From contig OZ024742.1 in the NCBI GenBank assembly GCA_964016885.1, positions 3,782,001 through 3,846,000 of the forward strand: a DNA stretch of 64,000 bases, given 5' to 3'. Positions 4,233 to 60,376 of the stretch are shown in pieces (the first letter of the stretch is position 1; the number at the start of each line of letters is the position of its first letter). The stretch comes from Eledone cirrhosa (Eukaryota). Under the pieces are notes generated by a model. That model was not told where the DNA came from and did not search any database. It worked only from the letters and a program-made list of their open reading frames with translations. Position numbers and translations under genes: made by a program.

Positions 4233-4432
4233 CGAAGGAGGTGTGGTAAGGAACCTCATGGACCATAACGCACCTGATTACTCAATACTTAGGGTAGTAG
4301 AGTGGGAAATAGGAAAATGTTTAACCCCGACGACAGAGCTCAAGCCGTTTTGACAGCTATTTCTGGAGTCAGTCCAGAAATAGCTGTCGAAACGGCTTCA
4401 GCGCTGCCGTCGGAGTTAAACATTTTACTATA
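4229..4432. mobile_element. Fold-back fragment of HHR element family H (related to 29618-30750 and 47093-47245)
   Basis: Between (TA)n tracts. Inverted arms about 4310-4367 and 4371-4430 carry the GAAA-CGGCT..GCCG-TC half of the ribozyme. Confidence 0.75.
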
Positions 4433-4439
4433 TATATAT

Positions 4440-6090
4440 AGATTTGATGGCTTAAAGGAGTTACATGAGACATTACCGCACTTGAAGGGCGGCTTATACC
4501 GTGATGACGCCCTCCTCACTCTCGAGTATAAAAAGTGCAATATAGAAAGAACTAGGAAACAGTTACGTAGGTGCTTTAAAAACTTTAATCTAAGTATTAC
4601 CATAGATGCAAATGACAAAACAGTAAACTTCCTAGACGCCACCCTTGACCTAGAAACTAAAACATTTGCACCCTACCATAAACCTAACGATAGACTAACA
4701 TATGTAAACGCCAGCTCCAACCACCCCAAATCAGTCCTAAACGCTATTCCCAAAGGGGTCTCTAATAGAATTAGCAGACTTTCCTGTAATGAGAGTATCT
4801 TCAACTCCAATGCAGAGTATTATGACAAGGCCCTAGCAGAATCTGGTTACGGGAGTAGATTATCATATATACATAAGGACTCCCAAACCATGAGTGTGAA
4901 ACCTACCAACATAATCACACATAGTATGGCCACAAAGCCTAACCAACTTAGAGGCAAGAATAATAGTAAGAACCCTAATGGCGGTAACCCAGCTAAATAT
5001 AAACCACGTAAAGACAATACTAGAGTCCCTCACCACAACTCTAAAACAGCAAATGATCACGCCATGAATATAAACCATCCGGGCTTAAGCAAAACAGACA
5101 ACGCCACTAACGTTAATAACGGAACCTTACAAAATAGTACGCACAGATAAGAAAAATAGAAGAATGAAAAACATGTATTTTAACCCACCTTTTAACTCTG
5201 AGGTCCTCACTAACCTCCCCAGAGTATTCTTCTCATTATTAGAAAAAAACTTCCCACCAGGCATTAGATATCGCAACATAATTAACAAAAACGTGATTAA
5301 ATTATCCTATTCGACCACACCTAACCTCGCATCACACCTAGCACGCACGAACATTACGAAAACTAGGGAAGGTTTCGAAGCAATTAAAATGGCAGTTAAC
5401 CACCAGCAACCGACTACACTGGAAAATGGGCAACATAATAGTATCAATGAGCCATCTAATGATATAGGGGCACCTAGTGATAATGCTAGTAACCAAAGTT
5501 CGGGAGGTACGCTAACTAATCGAACCCGCAGTTGCAATTGTAGGCGGAGTAGTAACTGTCCCCTAAGGGGGGATTGCCTCATGAAAAACATCGTATATGC
5601 ATGTGACGTAACCACACACAACTCTACCAAAACATATATAGGATTAACGTCCAATACATTTAAAACTAGATTTAACGCGCATATGTTCACATTTAGACAC
5701 GATAGACATAATAATGCCACCTCACTGGCGGTATACATCTCCTTTTTAAAAAATAATAGTACCCCATACAAACTTTTTTGGAGGAAGCTTACTAGATCCA
5801 CGCCATACCGACCGCAGAGCGGGATTTGTGACCTGTGTTTACTGGAATGCCATGCCATAATACACTCTAAACTGAACCTGCTTAACAAGAAATCGGAAAT
5901 TTTCTCCTCTTGCCAACACAAAATCCTGAGTTCCTTCTTCTATTTTAAACCTAGCACATAGACGTAACATATATTACGCAACCCCCACCTAGATATACCC
6001 CCTCCTTGACTATAGCTTCCCCCCTCCCCCCAACCCGTAACCTAGATAGATAGGTAGCCTAAGGGTGGAACAGTCCCCTACAAGGTTGGT
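4440..6090 (+). mobile_element. 5'-truncated Penelope-like element: RT C-terminus/thumb plus GIY-YIG endonuclease, broken by a stop/frameshift near 5150
   Basis: GLYRDD, VNFLDATLDL, PYHKPN..YVNASSNHP; then CNCRRSSNCPLRGDC, NIVY..TYIGLT..FKTRF..H, CDLCLLE, LLNKKSE..CQH. Starts directly at a TA tract. Confidence 0.92.
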
Positions 6091-19521: not shown

Positions 19522-20329
<808 letters not shown>

Positions 20330-20331
<2 letters not shown>

Positions 20332-22044
20332 TAAGTACGTTAATGTAAAATCGAACCATCCTCATTCCATTATTAAATCTATCCCTAAAAATATATCCAT
20401 AAGGATCTCCCGACTGTCGTCTAATTTGCAGACCTTCAACGAGCATGCTGAATATTATAATGACGCACTTAGAAAAGCTGGTTACTGCGAGAAAATTGAA
20501 TATCTAGACGATAACCACATAAATACTATGAATAAAACACATCTAAGTCGAACTAGTATTGCACCACACACACACATCAATAGGCATACTAACAGGTGCA
20601 AACCAGCAAATAGAGTCAGACGTAGAGAGTACATATGGTATAACCCCGTGTACAATTCTTCTATTAGCACTAAGATTATCTCACAATTCTATACACTAAT
20701 CAATAAACACTTTACAACTTCACATAAATACTATAAAATCTTTAACTCGCGCACCATTAGACTCTCATACTCCACTGCACCTAACATAGAACAACTAATT
20801 AGAAAACTCAACTCAGCAATACTGAATAAGTACATCCCTAATGACTCAGCGCACCAGCATAGCAACATACAACGCACTAATACGCAGCCACAACCCCACC
20901 AAACTATCCAGGATTCTACTGCAAAACATAAAAATAGTTGTAACTGCACCAAACCAGGTACGTGCCCACTGAATAACCAGTGCCTAGCACGCAATATTGT
21001 CTACCGGTGTACAATAAATTCCGGGACCAACAAATGGTATTACGTCGGATGTACCGCAACTTCTTTCAAGGCTCGCCTATACCAACATCGATCTTCGATC
21101 AGGTACGAGAAAATGCGCTCCGTAACAACCCTCGCCGATAAAGCCTGGCAGCTTCGGAGGAACAATCAAGCGTTCTCCCTTGATTGGCAAATTATTGCAG
21201 CTGCGCCTGCATATCAGCAAAATCATCGATTCTGCAAGTTATGCAATTTAGAGATATACTGCATTTTAACGTCGGTAAACAAACTTTTGAACAGCAAAAT
21301 TGAACGTTCTCTATACTGTAACCATCGTTTGAAAATGACTTTTTCTTTTTTTAAATGCATATAATGTTACCTTTTTACACCAACGTTTGCAAATTTCTGT
21401 CTTATATGTTTATACACTAGATATGGCTTTCTATAATAATAGTACTAAACACTGTTTTTCTGGACCCCTTTAGAAATAACCTGCTACTATAATAGCCCTA
21501 ATAACTTGTCTGTGACATTGTACCACTTTGACCCCTCTAACTAAATTTTGTCCGAACAACACCACTAGAAGTATCTACTTCCCAGCCAACCTTAGCACGC
21601 CTCATTAAGCTAACTGCTGCCAAAACATTCTCTCTTCACAATCTCTACTAGTCTGACAGTCTTAAACCCTAAGACTCCCTCCACCTTACTCACTTCCCTC
21701 TTCCCCTTCTCTTCCTACCTCCTTCTTTATCTTTTATCTAGTGTATAAAATATTTTCATATCATTCTAATACAAAGGTCTGATGACATGGTGTGTTGGCT
21801 TACAGTGTACTTTCGGTTTTTGATAATATTTGTGTATTATTCAAATAGCGAGGTATAGGTAACTCATACACTATAGAAACAATTGTTACCTAATAAATTC
21901 TATATACCCGCATTTCCATTTCGTAAATTTTTTCTCCATATATTTTTTTTTTTTTTTTTTTTTTTTGTTAAATAAGACTCCATTTGCATTTTCGATTACA
22001 TCCTTTACACCTCGATTATTTTTCATTTTGTAAAAAAAAAACAC

Positions 22045-26339: not shown

Positions 26340-27922
26340 AAAGCCACAACAATGCAGATGGGAAATCTCGAGGTAGGAAGTGAGTGAGAAATAGGAGAAA
26401 AGTGAAAAATGAGAGAAACGAAAACAAAACAAAGTTAGAAGGGTTACCGTAGTGGAGATTTAATCCCAATATTTCGGGCTCACGTCCATCAACGGGGGGA
26501 AAGTTCCAAGAGGGGAGGAACAGGCTAAGCCGGAGAAAGTTGTTGTATTGTCGTTAAAACATAGGAATGCCGTTATGGGGAAAATTCAAACGAGGGAAAG
26601 AATGCGCGTGGCAGGCTGTGACAAAAGCTACTGACCAATTGGGTTAAATCAATAGGGTGCGCTAGCGCGTGAAAGCCGTAAAATATGTGTGTGTAAATAT
26701 ATATGTGTGTGTAACTGTGTGTGTATATGTGTATGTGTGTATGTATGTGAGTGTGTGTGTGTGTGAAAGATAGTGGGCCGTAGAAGCTGGAATTCAAAGG
26801 GTGTGAAAGGTGGTAGGTTGTATAAACATGTGTGCGTGTATAAATATAGATGTGTGTGTGTGTGTGTGTGTATGTGTATGGGTATACATATAAGTGCGTG
26901 TGTGTGAAAGATAGTAGGCCGTAGGGGCTGTTACTGGTCACTATGGTTAGATTAGCCTTGTCAGTTCATTTCTCTCAGCCCGGTTGTTAAGTGGGGGTCT
27001 GAGGTTCTTAATAACAAGTGCTTCCTTTATCCTTAAGGATCCGATGCTGCGTTCAGTCGCAAGGGTGTGCCCTATGTAAAACTTGTTACATTTATCGCAT
27101 TGAATCTTATATACGACATAGGAGCGTAGGCAATCTTCCCCCGTATCGGGCAGTTGCTGAGGGAACACGTCCCATCTGACTCGTCGGGTTTGGTGGAGAG
27201 GCATCTTCGGAGCGAAGGTCCTGTGTGGGCCAAATGTATGTCAAGTCCCTCCCTCCGTATGGCCCTGCGGATGGCGTTCGTGGTATATTCACTCAGGTGG
27301 TGGATTTTAAAGAAGCACTTGTATTTATCTAAGTTTCTAGTGGGTGTCTGTCTATTGGGTCTGGGGTCTCTAATTCCGTTAATTAGTCGCTTGGGATATC
27401 CATTAGACTTAAGTAGATTACGGAATTTCGTGGTATGGGTGAGACCACCCATCGGGTCGCTGCATCTATTAGTGATCCGTGTAAGTTCATTTAGGACATA
27501 GCCTCTCTTAGCGTTGTTGGGGAGGGCTGAGTTGTAATGCACAAATAAGTCCTTGCACGCTGCCTTGCGGTAGAAGGTGGTGTTTATGTCTCCTTCTTCC
27601 GAGATGTTGATACGGAAGTCGAGGAGGGCGAGTGACCCGTCTTCTTCAGGGTGTTCGATGGTGAAATCGACGTGATGGTCAGTGTCGTTAAAGATTTGGT
27701 GAATTTCATTCGCCATCTCCCGGGAAGAAGTGAGTATCAGTATGTCATCAACGTATCTGGAGTAGAAGGCGACGACGTTGGGTTGGCAGGTGTTGAGTGC
27801 CTTGCGTTCCAGGTGGTCCATGTACGAGATCGCAAGTATGCCGGACAGACTAGAGCCCATAGGTAGCCCAGAGATCTGTTTGTACGTGTGGCCGAGGAAA
27901 TTGAAGAAATTGAACTCAACGT
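26340..27922 (-). mobile_element. 5'-truncated Penelope-like element: RT plus internally deleted GIY-YIG (26947-27922)
   Basis: YKQISGLPMGSSLS..YMDHLE, YSRYVDD, FTIE..LALLD, FYRK; frameshift, then CLRSYVVYKIQCDKCNKFYIGHT..IKEALVIK..PPLN. Confidence 0.92.
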
Positions 27923-27966
27923 TTAAATATAAATATAAATATAATAAACTATTCAAGAAAAGTTTA

Positions 27967-28370
27967 TCCTTTCAATATCTTGAGTAAAATATACGTAAGA
28001 TAAATTTCTATACTAAATATATTAAACATATTATTTTAACTTAAAATATTCTATAATATTTTTTAATATTTTAATATTTTGATATTTGTAGAATTCCTTT
28101 GTAGAATTCTTTTGTTTTTTAAGTTATATTGATATAATATTTTATTTACTTTTTATTAGGTTTATTTTTATTCTGATAGCTTCTCATAATTTTCAAATGT
28201 TTGTCCTTTCAATATCTTGAATAAAATATACGTAAGATAAATTTCTATACTAAATCTATTAAACATATTATTTTAGCTTAAAATATTCTATAATATTTTA
28301 AGATATTTTAATATTTTGATATTTGTAGAATTCCTTTGTTTTTATGTTATATTGATATAATTATATTTCC
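27967..28370. repeat. AT-rich direct duplication, period ~237 bp
   Basis: tcctttcaatatcttga at 27967 and 28204 with colinear continuation. Confidence 0.8.
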
Positions 28371-41192: not shown

Positions 41193-41633
41193 TTATTAAA
41201 ATAACAGATTAAAGTTTAAGCAAAGAATCGCTGCTTTCACCCTTAACGGGATCTTCTGAAATTAACAAATTCAATCTGTAAATGCAGAAGTGGATATTTC
41301 AAAAAACGTTGCAACCGGAGGAAGACAGGAAGACGATATACTTTGGTTCGTGGAAACGTTCCCTGGCAAAGAACGGGAAAAAACGAATATAATACGTCAT
41401 TAATAGGAGCGGTGAAAAACAATTACGCGCAAAGACAGAACCACGTTTATAGTATAAAAGAAGTCGTAGACTAATGTTCTCTTAGGTGGTTCAAAGAGAC
41501 GTTCTCTGGCAATGAACGGAAAAAACGAAGACAATACGTCATATGTGGAGCGTGGAGAGCAATTGCACGCAAAGAAAAAAACACGTAAATAGTATAACTG
41601 AAGTCGTAGACTAAATTCTAACTAGGAAACCGA

Positions 41634-44180
41634 ATGAATGCTATCTCTTCATCACGTAATGGAGAGATAGCATGCTTTCCAACAGACAAGTCTGGCAGTA
41701 TGTCGGTTGACAGCCTGCCAAACTACATCCAGGCAATGCAACCCCACAACACTAACACAAGAGAGGTAACACCACAGGAGCATGAGGATAGAGAAAAAGC
41801 CCTCAATGCCCATATGGTGATGTGGACGAATATAATGCAGCCCAACAAAAGGACTGCCAACAACTTCCAGGCCTGGAACAATGACGTGCCGGCGTTGTAT
41901 GGGCTTCCAAAAGACCATAAAACGGGCAGTGACCCTGTCGCGGGACCACCAACACGGCCAGTCTGTGGAGCTAACATTGCTAGTAACTACAGACTGTCCT
42001 ACTTCCTCTCCCTGATCATACGCCCCATCATTGAAATGTCCCCAGATGTATGTGACAGCACGGAGGACCTCCTCAGCAGAATCGGCGTGAGTAACCGATC
42101 TGGGGACCTAATAAACTGCAGAATAAGCAGTATGGATGTTGTGTCCCTGTATCCATCTATTGACGGGGATTTTGCTGTGGAGAAATGCGTAGAAATGATC
42201 AGTGAGAGCAAGGTTGAGTTCCGTGGGATTGATACCAGTGAGCTGGGACTCCTACTTAAGCTTACCTATAGTAATAGTTACCTCGACACATATGACCTTA
42301 GCAACCTGTGCCCTACAAGACCAGCAAGAGGCAGACCACCTATCATTACCTCAATGGCCAAGAAAACCCACACAGATAGATGGAACGGGTGGACCAGAGC
42401 CATACGGACACCCGAAAACTACGATGAACTGAAGAAAATGATTGCACATGCGGTAGGGGCCAGCATAAAACTAACCCTTAAGAAACATATGTTCAAATTT
42501 AATGGAAAAACATATGCCCAAGAGGAAGGAGCAGCCATTGGTGTTAGCATTGCAGGCGACATAGCTAACTAATTCATGGTATGGTGGGACAGTAGACTTA
42601 AACTTAAACTTAAAGAACAATTAGAAGACCCCTTAACCCTGATAATGTACTCCCGCTACGTAGATGATATAAACATCGTAGTTAAGACACCCCCACTAGA
42701 GAACAGTCAGGAACTAGAGAAAAACACAACGGAAAGCATCCAGCAAATAGCAAACTCCATCCACCAGAGCATTAGAGTTACTATAGACTACCCAAGTAAA
42801 CACCCCAACCATCGATTACCTGTACTAGACACAGAGCTCTGGTTAGATACCATTAACAACAAAAAACAAATCCTCCATTCCCATTATGCCAAACCCATGA
42901 CTTCCAAACATCTGATCCACCGAAACTCGGCCATTTCGGACCATACCAAAATCAACATACTGATTGCGGATTTGGTACGGGTGATGAGAAATGTGTCCCG
43001 CATGTGCAACCCCGAAGAACTAGAGAGACACATACAACACTTCATCCACCGTATGCAGTTCTCTGGCTACAATCAGAGAGATAAAATCAGAGTGTATAGA
43101 GGAGCCAGAACCAAATGGGAAAAAATGGTAAATAATGACATAAATGGGACCTGCCCCTTGTATAGGAGCAAATTTTGGAATAGAATAGAAAGAACTAAGA
43201 ATAAGGCCAATAGAATAAACTCATGGTATGATAGCAATAAATACCAGAGTGTAATGCTCATCGATACAACCCCTAGAGGTGAATTAGCTTACAAATTTAG
43301 AAGGGCCCTAAATAAACATAAACTCAATATTAAGATAGTAGAAAGACCAGGTACCTCCGTAAAAACACTTATTAGCAAGACATACCCTTTTCAAAGACCC
43401 TCATGTATAGATAAGAAATGTATAACCCTTAAAATAAGCCCCCATATTAACTGTAAAACTAGAAATGTAGTGTATAGCATAAGATGTACTGAAGGACAAT
43501 GTAGAGACAAAAATATAGTGTACATAGGTGAGACAGCTCGTAGTGTAGGGGAACGGATAAATGAACACTGGCGAGACCTTCAAGATAATAAAGAATCATC
43601 TGTACTCTACCAACATGCTAAGATAGAACACAAGGCTAAATTAGAGAACATAGAAATAAAAATAGAATCTACACACAGAAAAGACGCAATGTTTACACAA
43701 ATTACAGAGGCAATAAACATAAAAGAATTACAACCAAAATTAAATAGAAAATATGAGTGGAACAGCAACATCACAACTTACAATTAAGGAGAAAATGAAA
43801 ACACACACACACATAGAACAAACAACCAACCAGTAACATGTAAATAAACAAATAAATAAATGAACATAAACACACACAGACACCCGGATGTGGCGCATGC
43901 GCAGACTGAGCACACAACACACACACAGAAACAAAATGGCGTAGGACAGAACAAAGGAGAGGCACAGAAACAAAGAAAGGAATCCCCAGTCACTGAAGAG
44001 GTCACAGAGTGTGTGACGAAAGAACTATGACTATATATAAACAACTATCTGGTTGTGGAACCAACCAACCAACCAGAAATCTATAAATTTATAAATTTAT
44101 AAATATATAATAAATTGAAGTGAAACCACTGGTGCGTGTGTTTCTTATTGGCAACATGACCCTCCCAAAGTATAACAATA
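41634..44180 (+). mobile_element. Penelope-like element: RT plus Cys linker plus GIY-YIG (41634-43787, one in-frame TAA at 42570), 5'-truncated
   Basis: PTDKSG, LYGLPKDHK, TRPV, SMDVVSLYPSI, YAQEEGAAIG, YSRYVDD, LPVLD, HYAKP; NVVYSIRC..YIGETAR..ERINEH..EAINI..LNRKYEW. Confidence 0.95.
43988..44032 (+). ncRNA. Minimal hammerhead ribozyme (family K) in the PLE 3' pLTR
   Basis: AGTCA CTGAAGA gGTCAC..GTGAC GAAA GAAC TA TGACT. Confidence 0.8.
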
Positions 44181-46717: not shown

Positions 46718-46720
<3 letters not shown>

Positions 46721-46945
46721 TGAGATTCTACAGGACTAGAACTGTTTCATTCTTTAGAAATCATCAGGAATCTGGCTTTCCAAAAATAAATGTTGTGGTA
46801 TTTATATATTTTCAAGTGGTAGGAGAGGGTGAAGCGTGGATTGGGTGGAGGTCATTGGTTGAAAGAAAAGAGAATTCATTAAAAGCTAATTCTTTAAGGC
46901 TATAATTTATATTTTAGAGTGACAAAGACCAAGAGAATTCTATAA
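46718..46945 (-). mobile_element. Family L element with HHR at 46723-46773
   Basis: AGATTC CTGATGA..GAAA CAG..CTG TA GAATCT. Diverged opposite-orientation copy at 50000-50268. Confidence 0.85.
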
Positions 46946-47052
46946 ACCAGTTCAAAATATTGGGTGCCTATCATATCATTATTGTCATATTTCTCTTAAA
47001 CTATATTCCAGGTGTCAACAGACACATTCACACACACACACATACACACAAA

Positions 47053-47093: not shown

Positions 47094-47241
47094 GGAACGA
47101 GTAGGACCCCGACGGCTGAGCTCAAGCCGTTTCGACGGCTAATTCGAGGTCCTACTCGTTCTTATTACCCACTCTACTACCCTAAGTATTGAGTACTTTG
47201 GTGCGTTCTGGTCCACCTAGTTCCTTACCACATTTCCTTCG

Positions 47242-47245
<4 letters not shown>
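47093..47245. mobile_element. Family H fragment with inverted 5' piece
   Basis: Matches 29618-29670, then 30649-30750; TA flanks. Confidence 0.8.
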
Positions 47246-47300
<55 letters not shown>

Positions 47301-47308
<8 letters not shown>

Positions 47309-49844
47309 GATAAGCAGAACAAGTAAAATTCAATCAATTTTTCAAAATACATTAAAAAATATAATATAAATATTTACCTCTTCTAGTGGCCCTTACTGAT
47401 CAGTTTCATATTAACTTATACCTTTTTCTCCGTCCGTTGAGAACAAATCTGTTGCTTTACTAGGCTGCTATTTCTTTAGTAGTAATTGTAGACAGCAAGT
47501 CTTTGATTTTCCCGCTTTTACTTCGGTCCAGTTTACATACGGGTCACTTTTACGACCTTTCAGACCTTTATTAGCTGGCAGGAGGTTGTATATTTTGTCG
47601 TTCCTGGGACGTTTAGCCCTACGATGGGAAAATGCTTCTCTGATGAGCTTTGGTTTTCCATCATGAATCCATCGGATTTATGAGGTTTTACAAAGCGAAA
47701 CTGATCAGTAAGGGCCACTAGAAGAGGTAAATATTTATATTATATTTTTTAATGTATTTTGAAAAATTGATTGAATTTTACTTGTTCTGCTTATCTTAAT
47801 ATTAAAGTTCTGGTGTATCAAATTAACACCATTGAACAACCCTGAATCATTGACAACCTATGTATTTCTAGGGGTACCTAGTATCCCTGGACATATTAAC
47901 TTATACCTTTTTCTCCGTCCGTTGAGAACAAATCTGTTGCTTTACTAGGCTGCTATTTCTTTAGTAGTAATTGTAGACAGCAAGTCTTTGATTTTCCCGC
48001 TTTTACTTCGGTCCAGTTTACATACGGGTCACTTTTACGACCTTTCAGACCTTTATTAGCTGGCAGGAGGTTGTATATTTTGTCGTTCCTGGGACGTTTA
48101 GCCCTAGGATGGGAAAATGCTTCTCTGATGAGCTTTGGTTTTCCATCATGAATCCATCGGATTTATGAGGTTTTACAAAGCGAAACTGATCAGTAAGGGC
48201 CACTAGAAGAGGTAAATATTTATATTATATTTTTTAATGTATTTTGAAAAATTGATTGAATTTTACTTGTTCTGCTTATCTTAATATTAAAGTTCTGGTA
48301 TATCAAATTAACACCATTGAACAACCCTGAATCATTGACAACCTATGTATTTCTAGGGGTACCTAGTATCCCTGGACATATTAACTTATACCTTTTTCTC
48401 CGTCCGTTGAGAACAAATCTGTTGCTTTACTAGGCTGCTATTTCTTTAGTAGTAATTGTAGACAGCAAGTCTTTGATTTTCCCGCTTTTACTTCGGTCCA
48501 GTTTACATACGGGTCACTTTTACGACCTTTCAGACCTTTATTAGCTGGCAGGAGGTTGTATATTTTGTCGTTCCTGGGACGTTTAGCCCTAGGATGGGAA
48601 AATGCTTCTCTGATGAGCTTTGGTTTTCCATCATGAATCCATCGGATTTATGAGGTTTTACAAAGCGAAACTGATCAGTAAGGGCCACTAGAAGAGGTAA
48701 ATATTTATATTATATTTTTTAATGTATTTTGAAAAATTGATTGAATTTTACTTGTTCTGCTTATCTTAATATTAAAGTTCTGGTGTATCAAATTAACACC
48801 ATTGAACAACCCTGAATCATTGACAACCTATGTATTTCTAGGGGTACCTAGTATCCCTGGACATATTAACTTATACCTTTTTCTCCGTCCGTTGAGAACA
48901 AATCTGTTGCTTTACTAGGCTGCTATTTCTTTAGTAGTAATTGTAGACAGCAAGTCTTTGATTTTCCCGCTTTTACTTCGGTCCAGTTTACATACGGGTC
49001 ACTTTTACGACCTTTCAGACCTTTATTAGCTGGCAGGAGGTTGTATATTTTGTCGTTCCTGGGACGTTTAGCCCTAGGATAGGAAAATGCTTCTCTGATG
49101 AGCTTTGGTTTTCCATCATGAATCCATCGGATTTATGAGGTTTTACAAAGCGAAACTGATCAGTAAGGGCCACTAGAAGAGGTAAATATTTATATTATAT
49201 TTTTTAATGTATTTTGAAAAATTGATTGAATTTTACTTGTTCTGCTTATCTTAATATTAAAGTTCTGGTGTATCAAATTAACACCATTGAACAACCCTGA
49301 ATCATTGACAACCTATGTATTTCTAGGGGTACCTAGTATCCCTGGACATATTAACTTATACCTTTTTCTCCGTCCGTTGAGAACAAATCTGTTGCTTTAC
49401 TAGGCTGCTATTTCTTTAGTAGTAATTGTAGACAGCAAGTCTTTGATTTTCCCGCTTTTACTTCGGTCCAGTTTACATACGGGTCACTTTTACGACCTTT
49501 CAGACCTTTATTAGCTGGCAGGAGGTTGTATATTTTGTCGTTCCTGGGACGTTTAGCCCTAGGATGGGAAAATGCTTCTCTGATGAGCTTTGGTTTTCCA
49601 TCATGAATCCATCGGATTTATGAGGTTTTACAAAGCGAAACTGATCAGTAAGGGCCACTAGAAGAGGTAAATATTTATATTATATTTTTTAATGTATTTT
49701 GAAAAATTGATTGAATTTTACTTGTTCTGCTTATCTTAATATTAAAGTTCTGGTGTATCAAATTAACACCATTGAACAACCCTGAATCATTGACAACCTA
49801 TGTATTTCTAGGGGTACCTAGTATCCCTGGACATATTAACTTAT
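47301..49844 (+). mobile_element. Retrozyme-like array: five tandem 485-bp HHR-bearing units plus a ~106-bp inverted 5' segment, in (TA)n
   Basis: catattaacttat at 47407, 47892, 48377, 48862, 49347 and 49832. One HHR per unit; no ORF. Confidence 0.93.
47634..47715 (+). ncRNA. Hammerhead ribozyme, family N (also at 48119, 48604, 49089 and 49574)
   Basis: gcTTCT CTGATGA GCTTTG..TCATGAATCC-atc-GGATTTATGA..CAAAGC GAAA CTGATCAG TA AGGG: intact core, palindromic stem III, wobble-rich stem I. Confidence 0.88.
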
Positions 49845-49861
49845 ATATATATATATGTATA

Positions 49862-50268
49862 TTTAGGTTTGTTGGTTCACCACTGGATAGAATAGGTCAT
49901 TCCGTATGGTCAATCGCGATGTAATATTATGGAGAGTACTCAACGTAGTGCAGTTCACTCGTCTTCGTTTGTGTAGTTGGTGGTGCTAATACGGTGTTAA
50001 TTATTATAGAATTCTTTCTGCCTTTGTCACTCTAAATATAAAGTATAGCCATAAAGAATTAGCTTTTAATTCCCTTTTCTTTCAACCAATGAACTCCACC
50101 CATCCCACTTGCCACCCTCTCCTACGACCGGAAAAGATATAAATACCACAGCATTTATTTTTGGAAAGCCAGATTCCTGATGATTTCTAAAGAATGAGAC
50201 AGTTCTAGTCCTGTAGAATCTCATCTATATTAAAACTTTTATACTCTGCTATGTATTGAGTACCTTAT
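49862..50268 (+). mobile_element. Family L element (HHR at 50171-50221, GAAA mutated to GAGA)
   Basis: Shares the HHR and downstream sequence with 44663-44757. Confidence 0.8.
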
Positions 50269-54643: not shown

Positions 54644-57600
54644 ATTTCTTTATTAGCCACAGGGGCACAAAAGAAGGGACAAAAACAAAGGGGGGAGTTT
54701 ACATACAATAAAAACGTGTAAAATGTTATCACAAATGCAATTTAAAAAGTTAGTCGATTTTCTCCAATAGGGAGAGACAGTTTATATGGGTAACACATAC
54801 CCCCGAAAAAATGTGCAACCCTCATCTCCAGGAGTACGAAGAGTTTGTACTCCTTTCCTCTCCTCCTCCTTTTCCTCAACCTACAGGCTGATATAGAGAG
54901 AAGGCCCATTCACTCGGGCCATTCTCGCCACTTTCACCCACCTTCATAAAACTTGCTGGGGTACAGCACCTCTCTCTCCATCCTGCTTCTTCTTCCAAAG
55001 TGGTATTTGAAAAAAAGAATCAGTTGTTGGCCGGAGAGAAAGGTCTCTAACCTCAGCCCTTTCAACCTTGTCCACCATACAACCTCTTTCGCCATAGCCA
55101 TCACACAAAGGAAAACCGCCTCTCCTTCGTTTTTGAAGGAGGGTGGCGGTTTGATCATGACAATGGACTCGGTGGTCAACCGGATTGGTCCCACCCGCGA
55201 CGATTTTCGTTCTACATAGCCCCACAGGTCAGTGACGCCCGGGCAGTGTATGAATGCGTGGGCGACGGTTTCTTCGTCTCGCACGCACCTCGGACAGATC
55301 TTTTTTGCAGGGTTCCTGCCCGGGCGCCCATGTCTGTAGAGCTTCTCTCGAACTGGTAGAGCTCCTCGGTAGCACTGCCAGGCCAGGGACTTTTGGAAGT
55401 TGTCCATCGGTCCCGGGAGGAAGGTCCTACCGAACAGACTGGCCAGTTCATCTTCCTCTACGCCTAGAGTTTCACCGAGCGCGTCGTCGCACTTGCTGCG
55501 GATCAACCCTCTATAGAATGACGAAGTGAAGACTCCACTGATCGCCGGGTCCGCTTGCCAGAGGGCTGTGAGTGCCTGAGCACATTCGATGTGCCAGTCG
55601 CCCATTTTCCTCGGTCTTTGCTTGACCCAGGACTGCAGCTCGGTCAGCGAGACGAGTCGTGGGAAGGCTCGCCTCACGAACGGGGCCCACACCGGTTGTC
55701 CGGTGAGGAATACGTAGAGATGCCGCAGCCTGAGCGCGTGTTTGCGCATCGTCAACCACGGCATTCCCAGCCCACCGTTAGAAGGGTGTTGGCAGCAGAT
55801 GGATCTCCTCACCAAAGGAGCCCGCCTCCTCCAAAGGAATTGGAAGAGCGCGCGTTCCATTTTGGCGAGCGTTTTGGCTGGACAAGGCACGACGGTCAAG
55901 CGGTAGTAGATGGCGGACGCTATAAAAGTGTTCGCCACCTCCGCTCGACCTTTCAAGGATAGTTTGCACTCGGCCCACGTCTGGGTGAGTGCAAACACCT
56001 TGGCTGTCACTTCGTTCCAGTTCTTCTCCACCTGGAGGTCCGGACCAAACCAGACCCCGAGCAGCTTTACAGGTCCTTCCGTCCAGCGTCCGACGACGCC
56101 ATCGGAAGGCATCGGTTTGCCTCTCCACGATCCGAGTTGCAAACTGATGGACTTGTCCCGGTTCAGCTTCGCTCCTGTGAAATTTTCGTATTCCTTCAGT
56201 AAGGTGCCGACTTCCTCGATTTGCGAGGCGCTCAACACCATTACTGTCACATCGTCGGCGTAGGCCGACGCCGATTTCCGCAGTCCCGGTTCCAGAGGGA
56301 TGCCCTGCAATAGCTCCAACTTCCGCAGTAGTGGCTCGATAGTCAGTACGTACAGAAGGGAGGAGAGAATGGATCGCGTAATATGGAACGGCTCCGAGAG
56401 GTAGCCGTTCACCTTGACCCTTGAGCAGATGTTGCTGTTGTGCATTGCAGCAATCTAGCCCCTGAACACGGGTCTGAAGCCTGCCGCCTCGAGCACCGCA
56501 TCCAGGTAACGATGGTCAACCCTATCGAAAGCCTTAGACTGATCCAAGTTGATCAGGGCCCCACCGAAGCCGGGTTTACACCCTACCCTCTCTATGATGT
56601 ATCGCATGAGGTGGAGGTTGTCGTGTATGGACCTGGTCGGGATTGCGCATGTCTGCGCTTCTTCCACCAGGATCTCGACGACAAGCGCCAGCCTCTTTGC
56701 ATACACCTTGGCCAAAATCTGTAACTCTGTGTTTAGCAGAGTTATGGGCCGGCAGTTGCCTATGTCATCCCCCTTATTCTCGTCCTTCCTGATTAGTGTG
56801 ACTACGCCCCCGGTTACAGAACTGGGGATTCTCCCGTTCTGTTGCCAGTTGCAGTAGACCGCTTCCAGGAGACCGGCAGAAATCGGCTTTTCGCAGAAAT
56901 TTGCCTCGCTGTCCAAGAGTCGCGGTAGGCCGTCGAGGTATGGACCGAAATCCATAGCCCCTCCCGGCGCGCCGCCCCGCCCGAACAGTTGAGTAAAGTG
57001 CCGCTGAAAGGCCGCACACATCTGCTTCGGCTCACGTATCACGGTCCGTTTTGGTCCTTCAAAGACCGAATCGTGGACTTGTTGCCACTTTTTGCCTCCG
57101 TCACTCGGGCCCAGCTAACAGCTTTGGCTCCCTCGTTTCCCAGAGCACCCATTTTGCTTCTGACAACGCAGCCCTCGTGCTTTGCGTCGAAGAACTGGTC
57201 CAAGGCCGTTCTCGTTGCTAGCACGTTGCCTACGTTGCCACTTCTAATTGCCTCTTCTACTTTATCTACCAGTTCCTTCTCGGTTCTATTTCTATCTAAC
57301 GCAAATTCTTTACTAAAAACTAACGAGTCTAATCTAACTGTCCTCTTGAGAGAGTACCACCATCTGTTGTTGACAATGGCCCCTGTCAAGAGCTGTTTAA
57401 CTAATGTGCTAATCCGTCTACTGTAGGCTTTGCTTGTCGGTAACGACAAGTTCAGCTCCCAGTAGCCGGGTCCTTGTCTATGGGTTCTATCAAGGCTGGC
57501 CATGCAGGTCACTAGTTTGTGATCTGAATAGGCAACCATGAACATTTGTGGACAGCTTAACATGTCCCTATCCTTATTTCTAACAAGAACCCTATCTAGG

Positions 57601-60376
57601 TACGATCTAGATGTTCCGCTACGATTACTCCACGTCCACAGTGGCGCAGTCGGAAAATCTAGTCGATATCTATGGGCCAGGTCAAATCGGTCGATTAACT
57701 GTTTGAGGCTGTTACACCCCCCTTTATCGGGACATGCTCCCAGATAGTCCCAACGTGCATCTAGGATTCCATTCCAGTCCCCCACTAAAAGCAAGGAGCG
57801 GGACGTTCCTAGAAAAGTCTCTAGACGTTTGAAGAAGTCTGGCCGCGGTGTCCCGGATGGGGCATATGCGGCCACCAGCCTGAAGGCTCCACCTTCACTA
57901 CCGCCAACGTCTAGGACCACCAGTCGACCCTCCGGGTCCAGATGTACCGTCTGTGTTACGAGGCCCAGGTGTTTCCGCAGCAAAACGGCAACTCCGCCCC
58001 CACCCCACGGTTGACAGAGAGATGCGTAGATCTCAAAGTCATCGAAGATGGGGCCAGCTGTCGCTCGCTGTGGATCCTGGATTCGCAAATGGCTACCACA
58101 TCCTTACTGTGTGACCTGAGGTCGTTTAAGAGTTTGCCCTGTTTAAGGGCATCCCCAGGCCGCGTACGTTCACACATCCAACTCTTATATTGGCCATGTT
58201 GGTGCTGAAAAGTTAAAAGAGGAAAAGAGATCACTCACCCTTCATCTCCTGGGGACCAGGCCGCACGATTTCCATGGGGTTGTTGGAGGGGTTGTCTGGA
58301 TGGGTGGTGGTTTCCGGCGGGGTGGGGACGGAGTTGTTTGGTGGGGTGGGGTCTGGTGGGATGGGGGTGTCTGGGGTGGGGAGACATTTGAGAAGGACGC
58401 GGTTAAGTGGTTTCACGCAGGAATTACCCCCATCCTTCTCAAATGTTTCTTTTAGAGACCTATAAGTTTGTATAGGGACCCTAATCAGTCTTAGGTTCAG
58501 TTTTTTGTTATTTTTAATAGAGTGGGCGAAAGTTTTCCCTTCGGTTTTCACCGAAGGGTCGTTCGTGATGGTCTCCATTAGTGTTTATGTTTTCAGTGTT
58601 TATGTAAGTGTAAGCGTAATCTTGTGTTGTGTTTGTTTTTGTCTGTAGTTCTTGTGTGTGCTTTCGTTTTGTTGTAGGTATTTTGTTTTCATGAGGTGGG
58701 GGTTTTGTTTGTGATGTTTTTGTTGTTTGTGTTGGTGGTTGTATGTTTGTGGTAGTGTGTGCTGGTTTTTTGCTTTTGTGATGTCTTTTCTTTCCTTTCG
58801 AGCGATGGGGTTTTCCCTCGTATTCACTGGGTGATGGCGAGATAGCCTCATCTGTTGTATCGTCTGTGTGATTGGGGAGGGGTATGTCTTGGGGAGCTGT
58901 TGTGTCTGCATGTGATTTTGCAGTGGTTTTAGGTGGAGTGGGGTTGGGTGGGTCTGTGTTTGTTGTGGTTATGTTTGTGTGTTGGTGTTGTTGTTGTTGT
59001 GGTGGTGTTGGTGGTTCGTGTTGTTTTGATGGGTGTCGGCAGAAGAGCCTTTTTTGACTCATTAATTTAGGACAGGAAGCCCTCAGGTGACCCCTGCTAA
59101 AGCAATGGTAACATGAAGGCCGCCTACCCTCAACCGAAAAGTTTATGTAGGTGAGTCCGTCCAGGAGTACACGTTGTGGTATCATATCTATTCGCTCTGG
59201 GCTCATTTGCACCAGAACTTCAATGCTAGTCCCATTGAATACATCTCTGGGGGACTTTCCTACTGACAGTATTCTGTCTTCCTCAAAATTGATGAAGCCG
59301 CACAGTATCCATCATATGTTCACCTTTGGTGTGACACTCGTGATTTTGATCTTTTGAGTCTTTTTTCCCATGTATGTAGGGAAAAAGATGTACAGGTTGG
59401 ATACAATTGGCGACACAGAGTAATTTTGGACCGTCAATTGATCCTTCATGAGTACCGAAATACTCCCAAAAAGTTAGCTTCTTTGAATGAATGCAATATC
59501 ATTCATTGAATTTTTGAAAACCAATCAATTTCTTTCTGTGACAATTGGACTGGTTTTCGGGTAGAATTGGAAACTGTCCTAAAAACTATCGTTTTGAGAG
59601 CAGTTTCCTTGCGAATTTCTACCGGAGAATTGATGCTGAGAGCACCATTTTTTTCGAAAGTGACATATCTCCTAGCGTCCTTTAAAAGTTGTTCGGCATT
59701 TGTTATGTCGAGATATATCAGTTCCTCCTTTTTTTTAACTATCTGTGCAAAGGAAATTTTTGGTTTCTTTGTGGAATTATCCGTGTTGGTGGTGTTGTCA
59801 TTATTGTTGTTATTGTTGTTGTTATTCTTGTTGTCAACGATGTTGATATTATTCGTGTTTTCCTTGGTGTTGGTGTTGGTGTTGGTGTTGCTGTTGTTGT
59901 TGTCTTTGATGCTGGTGTTATTGGTGTTGTCTTTATTTTTTTCTTTATTGTTGTTATCATTGTTGTTTTTATCATCATTATTGGTGTTGTTGTTATTTTT
60001 GTTGTCATTGAACTGTTTGGTGTCATTTGTGTTGTTTGGATATGAATTTGTTTTTACATTTTCATTTCGTCTTTCCATCTCTATAGTATCTGTTGAGAAG
60101 GAAGGGAAGACGACGATGTTGACTGCGAGCTTTGTAGTCTTACCGACTATCCACCACCATTATCGTTGGACGCAGCGTTCATAACGTAATCAAACTTTTA
60201 CAATATTTTTTCAAAAATTCGATGGAGAAAACATTTTTCAAACGAATATTTCGCCTCTGTAGGGGCGAAAATGAGTTGACCCACCACCTGAGGGTCCAGA
60301 CGGGGGTCAAGTTACACAATAATATAAAATTTAACTGTAAACTCACGTTTTTTTTCTAACATAAATTAACGTCTGA
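54644..60376 (-). mobile_element. Near full-length decayed Tx1/L1-clade LINE
   Basis: ORF1 (~58231-60078): Asn/Thr-rich, CYHCFSRGHLRASC knuckle. ORF2 (58197-54881): MANIRVGCVNVRG, GGGVAVL, YAP, GDWN, SYLDR, SDH; RPITLLN, LDQSKAFDRV, SAYADD, GGLG, CPRC..ETVAHAFIHC. Several frameshifts. Confidence 0.95.

Follow-up and report, generated by a model that had tools for sequence, protein, structure and literature searches.

The tandem array in the analysed window, a 64,000-nt stretch of Eledone cirrhosa DNA (contig OZ024742.1 of GCA_964016885.1, positions 3,782,001 to 3,846,000), is one insertion of a young and dispersed family of non-LTR retrozymes, a previously known class, and its sequence suggests that the enzyme of a Penelope-type element (PLE) copied a circular RNA several times round. 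The best explanation overall, to which we assign a probability of roughly 0.6, is insertion in trans, by a PLE and from circular RNA, of a non-LTR retrozyme that is itself non-autonomous. A preliminary description had proposed a very recent insertion by a PLE reverse transcriptase (RT) going five times round a 485-nt circle; the PLE part is supported by direct footprints, namely two fixed ends, A and B, and their pairing in inverted insertions, and the circle is favoured rather than proven.

The array (47407-49845) comprises five 485-bp units and 14 bp, i.e. 5.03 units, with a GC content of 36%, and the units differ by exactly three substitutions (47622, 48300 and 49081), in agreement with the five units and about three substitutions counted previously and with a very recent insertion. 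The 106 bp at 47302-47407 match unit positions 291-396 exactly in reverse complement, where unit position 1 is 47407, and overlap the array by 1 nt. As also described, (TA)n runs lie on either side of the insertion, at 47243-47305 and 49842-49856; both insertion ends fall within them, where a target-site duplication, longer than 4 bp in non-LTR retrozymes that have one, is unreadable. The reported lack of an ORF was confirmed, the longest ATG-started frame in three joined units being 19 aa on the plus strand and 34 aa on the minus strand, and the array holds no ORF with RT and GIY-YIG endonuclease, by which an autonomous PLE is recognised. LTR structure was absent from 79 family-1 loci. Assembled contig sets (four from one study, kind unspecified) hold pieces of the unit and none spans the whole array. 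The features of the insertion are as follows.

47243..47301, no strand: left half of the (TA)n target, proposed to have primed the site-A cDNA; ATAT, the last 4 nt of arm A, is common to the run.
47302..47407, minus: arm A, inverted cDNA of unit positions 291-396, whose outer end falls at fixed site A and whose inner end is a truncation point.
47407..49845, plus: arm B, 5 x 485 + 14 bp (2,439 bp); outer end at fixed site B.
47636..47714, plus: type I hammerhead of unit 1, predicted to cut after 47710; stem I 47636-39/47711-14, CUGAUGA 47640-46, long stem II 47647-96, GAAA 47697-700, palindromic stem III 47700-09.
47719..47795, plus: predicted AU-rich hairpin lying 3' of the cut and 5' of site A, repeated in each unit.
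47807..47840, plus: superfamily motif GTTCTG...CATTGAACAAC, just 3' of site A, repeated in each unit.
48121..48199, plus: hammerhead of unit 2, predicted cut after 48195.
48606..48684, plus: hammerhead of unit 3, predicted cut after 48680.
49091..49169, plus: hammerhead of unit 4, predicted cut after 49165.
49576..49654, plus: hammerhead of unit 5, predicted cut after 49650.
49743..49845, plus: 'tail' of about 100 nt from site A to site B, at the right end of the insertion only.
49846..49856, no strand: right half of the (TA)n target, proposed to have primed the site-B cDNA.

The surroundings are rich in repeats. Two older copies of another abundant repeat with a hammerhead-like motif, mutually inverted, lie at 46720-46960 and about 49990-50230 (CTGATGA at 46761 on the minus strand and 50177 on the plus strand), and this motif also ends at (TA)n in loci L101, L104, L108 and L115. 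A short, very abundant hairpin repeat with deep contig cover lies at 47094-47226, immediately to the left of the insertion and with a (TA)n run on each side, and broken PLE fragments of several types, together with a decayed LINE remnant, occupy 4293-5961, 20240-21364, 27072-27971, 41622-43787 and 54934-59311 of the window.

CTGATGA recurs at 47640 + n x 485, and every unit has core, stems and GUA in the order CUGAUGA, 50-nt stem II, GAAA, palindrome ACUGAUCAGU and GUA site, with the palindrome present in the array units as ACTGATCAGT and the GUA sites ending at 47710, 48195, 48680, 49165 and 49650. An intact type I hammerhead with palindromic stem III, as claimed beforehand, is thus found in all five units. 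A search of the window against Rfam gave no match at the gathering score, so that the hammerhead was not called, and at E <= 10 it returned only TA-repeat artefacts and again missed it; our call relies on covariation and on the sequence of the core, which is intact in 187/191 family-1 copies, some of which were ascertained on the GAAA-GUA side, and in 32/35 family-2 copies. An alignment of nine copies, with the pair count limited to stems I and IIb because stems IIa and III are one column off register in it, has 96% of cells paired; 4/14 pairs show changes on both sides, whereas sliding the partners gives at most 1, a comparison that is not a probability because the nine copies are mutually related. 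Intact cores and two-sided pair changes suggest that the hammerhead is under selection.

The cut-to-cut monomer is predicted to fold at −132.6 kcal/mol (z −4.5), and none of 100 dinucleotide shuffles was as stable. Stem III has no predicted stability as a hairpin but reaches −13.6 kcal/mol as a duplex, and the palindrome occurs as ACTGATCAGT at 77 loci, ACTAATTAGT at 7, ACTGTACAGT at 1 and ACCGTCGGT at 17, of which the first three are distinguished by changes at inner positions where pairing is possible only between two copies. The palindrome is therefore preserved despite changes at positions unable to pair within one hairpin, which supports the proposed cleavage as dimers, known for hammerheads of this type (PMC6765202; PMC7229834). 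One locus, L208, has a weak form of the palindrome. GGAAA at 47624-47630 (unit 218-224) and TTTCC in the internal loop of stem II at 47654-47659 (unit 248-253) are conserved in families 1 and 2 with no covariation seen, and their pairing could produce a pseudoknot linking stems I and II, or else an inhibitory hairpin. At L117:534-620 there is a further hammerhead with a long stem II and an inverted piece upstream of it, not placed in any of families 1-4. Viroid-like replicons undergo RNA-to-RNA rolling-circle replication and often carry ribozymes on both strands. The minus strand of the array has no hammerhead core and nothing points to RNA-to-RNA replication, so the self-propagating viroid-like loop of the preliminary description is an overstatement.

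The retrozyme is abundant in this 3.0 Gb genome, where a 25-mer of the hammerhead core has 600 exact matches. A genome search returned 1,811 candidates, and the 39 scored places account for 188 matches at 97-100% identity. The expected further loci with other copy numbers were found, dispersed over many contigs and with unique junctions, and the retrozyme identity proposed earlier holds for every sequence-testable feature of animal non-LTR retrozymes. Family 2 has a unit of about 460 bp that is 61% identical to family 1, family 3 a unit of 482 bp and family 4 a unit of about 520-560 bp, and a profile of families 1-2 run over 671 kb of loci matched two retrozyme families beyond those in the profile and no PLE sequence. 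The motif just 3' of site A is common to the families and has 15,499 matches in comparison with 21 for its reversed control; 20 single matches, chosen for variety from the first 100 of the 15,499, were all retrozyme-type and included no PLE. By these sequence comparisons the superfamily is made up of at least four retrozyme families, and the motif is a candidate RT-binding element.

The ends of the sister copies were determined in three samples: 40 loci picked in positional order among the first 100 core matches listed, with four already examined being skipped (this sample requires the 25-mer, and very short arms are missing from it); the 39 best-hit loci of 1,811, with one arm at a contig edge dropped; and 21 family-2 loci, i.e. 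20 of 40 scored and L100. The 3' ends fall at two places. Among the 46 arms of the first sample, 36 end at A (unit 395-398), 8 at B (unit 11-17) and 2 elsewhere; the corresponding numbers are 32, 26 and 3 for the 61 arms of the best-hit loci and, at homologous places, 15, 17 and 2 for the 34 arms of family 2. Site A, at unit position 396 (47802 in unit 1), lies 92, 86 and 81 nt after the cut in families 1, 2 and 3, and site B 190-198 nt after it in the three families (cut+192 to 198 in family 1); the family-3 query contained A, and only the B ends of that family are informative. Each site is a few bases 3' of a predicted hairpin, and 122/134 of the A/B ends run into TA-like sequence. TA microhomology by itself was rejected as the origin of A and B, because a better TA-like patch (unit 322-347) forms the 3' end in only 1/107 arms. 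The 5' ends are scattered, with some clustering at a TA-like patch (unit 317-330).

Head-to-head insertions with two arms pair A with B in 35/40 cases, with no A+A and no B+B and with one end not resolved in the other five; if the arms chose independently at even odds, the chance of 35 A+B pairs would be 0.5^35 = 3e-11. Both inverted insertions of family 3 (2/2) are also A+B. The array is itself an A+B case, with an arm A of 106 bp and an arm B of 2,439 bp. Three points of the preliminary description change in this light. The inverted segment was correctly seen and is exact at 106 bp, but its meaningful end is the outer one, at unit 396, and not GAAA, which is one among many scattered truncation points; the segment is a second primed cDNA and not a 5' accident; and the permutation of the array is not free, being set by two fixed priming sites (44/46 arms in the first sample). 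Microhomology overlaps at head-to-head junctions are mostly 0-8 nt. The same inversion junction occurs at L049:1819-1826 and L138:1305-1312, in different haplotypes and at a complementary patch of 8 nt, which suggests annealing between the two nascent cDNA ends.

Inverted 5'-truncated PLE copies with a 30-40-bp tail at one end have been described (PMC3846280, PMC8557442), and a purified PLE was reported to extend both target strands and to start reverse transcription at two internal RNA sites that bound the tail (PMC11167929). In that account the first start is 111-118 nt into the ORF and the ORF hammerhead cuts at 26, which places the start about 85-92 nt after the cut, in comparison with 81-92 nt in the retrozyme families. 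The fixed A/B ends in nearly all sister copies examined make it very probable that a Penelope-type enzyme inserted the array. In the sequence of events that we propose, the arrays would be transcribed, the hammerheads would cleave the transcript, probably as dimers via the palindromic stem III, and the 485-nt monomers would be ligated into circles. The PLE endonuclease would then cut a (TA)n run, and both DNA ends would prime reverse transcription on the RNA, one at A and the other at B. In the window insertion, the A-primed cDNA would have stopped after 106 nt, the B-primed cDNA would have run five times round the circle, and the two arms would have joined head to head with their 1-nt overlap.

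The distribution of variants bears on the form of the template. Seventeen variants are fixed within the arrays of the 39 best-hit loci, where mixed locus-by-site cells amount to only 3/593 and 73 singletons are unhomogenised. The 445T variant is found in 10 places only, the five units of the array and five in both arms of L049, which lacks all three singletons of the window array, and private variants occupy both arms in L032, L045, L048 and L049. None of 156 crossings of the cut site has an indel, and among 108 arms, loci with the same haplotype have no 5' junction in common. A single non-TA 5' junction was seen twice, 198|118 (8-nt microhomology), and it arose twice, since its two loci differ in haplotype. 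Arrays of one haplotype, together with the restriction of 445T to two loci, favour a circular monomer, which we regard as the probable RNA template. Periodic recurrence was observed for seven variants in 4/39 loci (L034, L037, L042 and L057). The pattern of L034 fits a DNA-level block duplication, and long arrays can therefore grow after insertion, a qualification to the five turns first proposed; a multimeric circle was rejected for L034, where the periodicity is incomplete. In L037 and L042, two independent changes affect one conserved bulged A (unit position 254) in alternate units, which may reflect a duplication in DNA or, alternatively, a dimeric circle produced where a unit did not cleave. 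Against the circle, only 1/9 Xenopus retrozyme dimers was reported to cleave in vitro (10.64898/2026.07.22.740005).

The same two-site PLE insertion could have used an uncleaved linear multimer, with units multiplying in DNA by unequal exchange or slippage and circles as a by-product, an explanation that we consider rather unlikely. It agrees with the in vitro work on PLE, in which hammerhead cleavage was dispensable and unprocessed RNA was the main substrate (PMC11167929), and with the periodic variants in 4/39 loci. Most insertions are about 1-1.3 units long, so that frequent single-unit bottlenecks could fix variants, and L049 would fit by length within a linear transcript of the window array if the three singletons came later. 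The active hammerhead fold is not the predicted minimum; in the ensemble predicted for the circle, the probability of stems I and III is 0, a feature that could equally protect a circle. Retrotransposition of a linear multimer alone, however, could never increase the unit number, and re-expansion would be needed after each new variant, yet singletons stay unhomogenised and the three in the window are aperiodic. Both arms exceed one unit in L050 and L066, and inherited mixed arrays or common junctions are absent.

A cleaved linear monomer, with the RT reaching its 5' end and jumping repeatedly to the 3' end of either that monomer or a different one, appears improbable. The 5' ends lie within 4 nt of the cut in 7/155 arms against 2.9 expected (p about 0.03, under a uniform null uncorrected for arm length), but the cut-site crossings are free of indels, and the mixed haplotypes expected from jumps between molecules are not seen. 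A stop of the RT at the cut site was itself rejected as weak at best on these 7/155 arms, the 5' ends gathering at the patch noted above. Amplification of a satellite at a single locus, or an assembly artefact, combined with an inactive ribozyme look-alike, would account for the near identity of the units and was named in the preliminary description as the refuting outcome; copies with varied unit numbers and unique junctions across many contigs, fixed A/B ends and covarying stems make it highly implausible. A possible error in the count of five units would leave the mechanism unchanged. For the template, the circular monomer is retained as the preferred reading.

The genome is rich in PLEs, with 10,597 GIY-YIG candidates. 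One family, represented by L099:4306-7122, is very young, with many intact 775-aa ORFs and 131/131 scored matches at 98-100% identity, and is probably active now. The L099 element has an RVT_1 match below the cut-off, along with a GIY-YIG domain at its C terminus, and its linker is CX4CxxC, which we take, by motif, to resemble that of Neptune/Nematis. Copies of the family run into (TA)n at cut+80 and near cut+146, and five inverted resident PLE copies (L104, L108, L110, L114 and L118) are A+B. By age, target and anatomy alone, the family qualifies as a candidate partner. BLAST of the retrozyme against 50 GIY-YIG loci of the 10,597 revealed no common sequence, the only match being another retrozyme family, and tblastn of 14 PLE frames against 98 retrozyme loci found PLEs as neighbours and none joined to a retrozyme arm. 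The superfamily motif is absent from the PLE 3' ends examined, and the similarity of the retrozyme to two PLE 3' ends is no better than that of shuffles. We give even odds to the fuller proposition that double-primed rolling-circle reverse transcription on a ribozyme-made circle is what these insertions record in DNA, a process in which the PLE enzyme would bind the conserved element and place one end at A and the other at B, each able to run for more than one turn, and the circle would constitute a self-sufficient lineage of parasites, comprising at least four families and more than 15,000 motif copies, with its own RT-recruiting motif and no detectable descent from present PLE ends.

Hammerhead viroids and satellite RNAs (PMC7761336) are likewise small non-coding RNAs whose multimers are processed to monomers by hammerheads; unlike them, the retrozyme is genome-encoded, spreads via DNA, has its core on one strand only and gives no sign of RNA-to-RNA replication. 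Metazoan non-LTR retrozymes, as described, are also dispersed and non-coding; each of their tandem units carries one type I hammerhead, GC is below 50%, the monomer is strongly self-paired and PLEs are co-resident. The 485-bp unit is above the 150-450 bp given in PMC7229834 and within the 51-972 bp of 10.64898/2026.07.22.740005. Rolling-circle reverse transcription of retrozymes by PLEs is a published hypothesis (PMC7229834, 10.64898/2026.07.22.740005) resting, as presented there, on co-occurrence and pLTR similarity; pLTR homology was reported for 24/57 Xenopus families (10.64898/2026.07.22.740005), whereas none was found here, and PMC7761336 describes retrozyme repeats without a conserved motif to indicate the partner. 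The very long stem II, the defined RT start sites, the A+B inverted insertions and the cross-family motif set the present element apart from these accounts. We found no account of fixed RT start sites or A+B inversions in retrozymes in the open literature searched; supplements and subscription papers lie outside it, and a prior description is possible.

PLE insertions (PMC3846280, PMC8557442, PMC11167929) share with the present ones a head-to-head inverted and 5'-truncated copy, a tail at one end and a microsatellite target, as well as two internal RT starts downstream of a hammerhead (PMC11167929); they differ in that here there is no ORF, the tail is about 100-110 nt rather than 30-40 nt and the arms cross several units. 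MRC1 and other non-autonomous Chlamys elements (PMC8557442) are likewise passengers of PLEs with multicopy head-to-tail insertions, but they resemble their autonomous partner at the 3' end and their clade is described as lacking canonical hammerheads. In the retrozyme, the junctions record the PLE mechanism through two start sites and strict A+B pairing, and the haplotypes are distributed as copying from a one-unit template would predict. Mapped start sites, a simple (TA)n target and the presence of a young, intact PLE in this genome make the choice between a circular and a linear template directly testable in vitro, and the strict A+B pairing constrains how any PLE makes inverted, one-tailed insertions.
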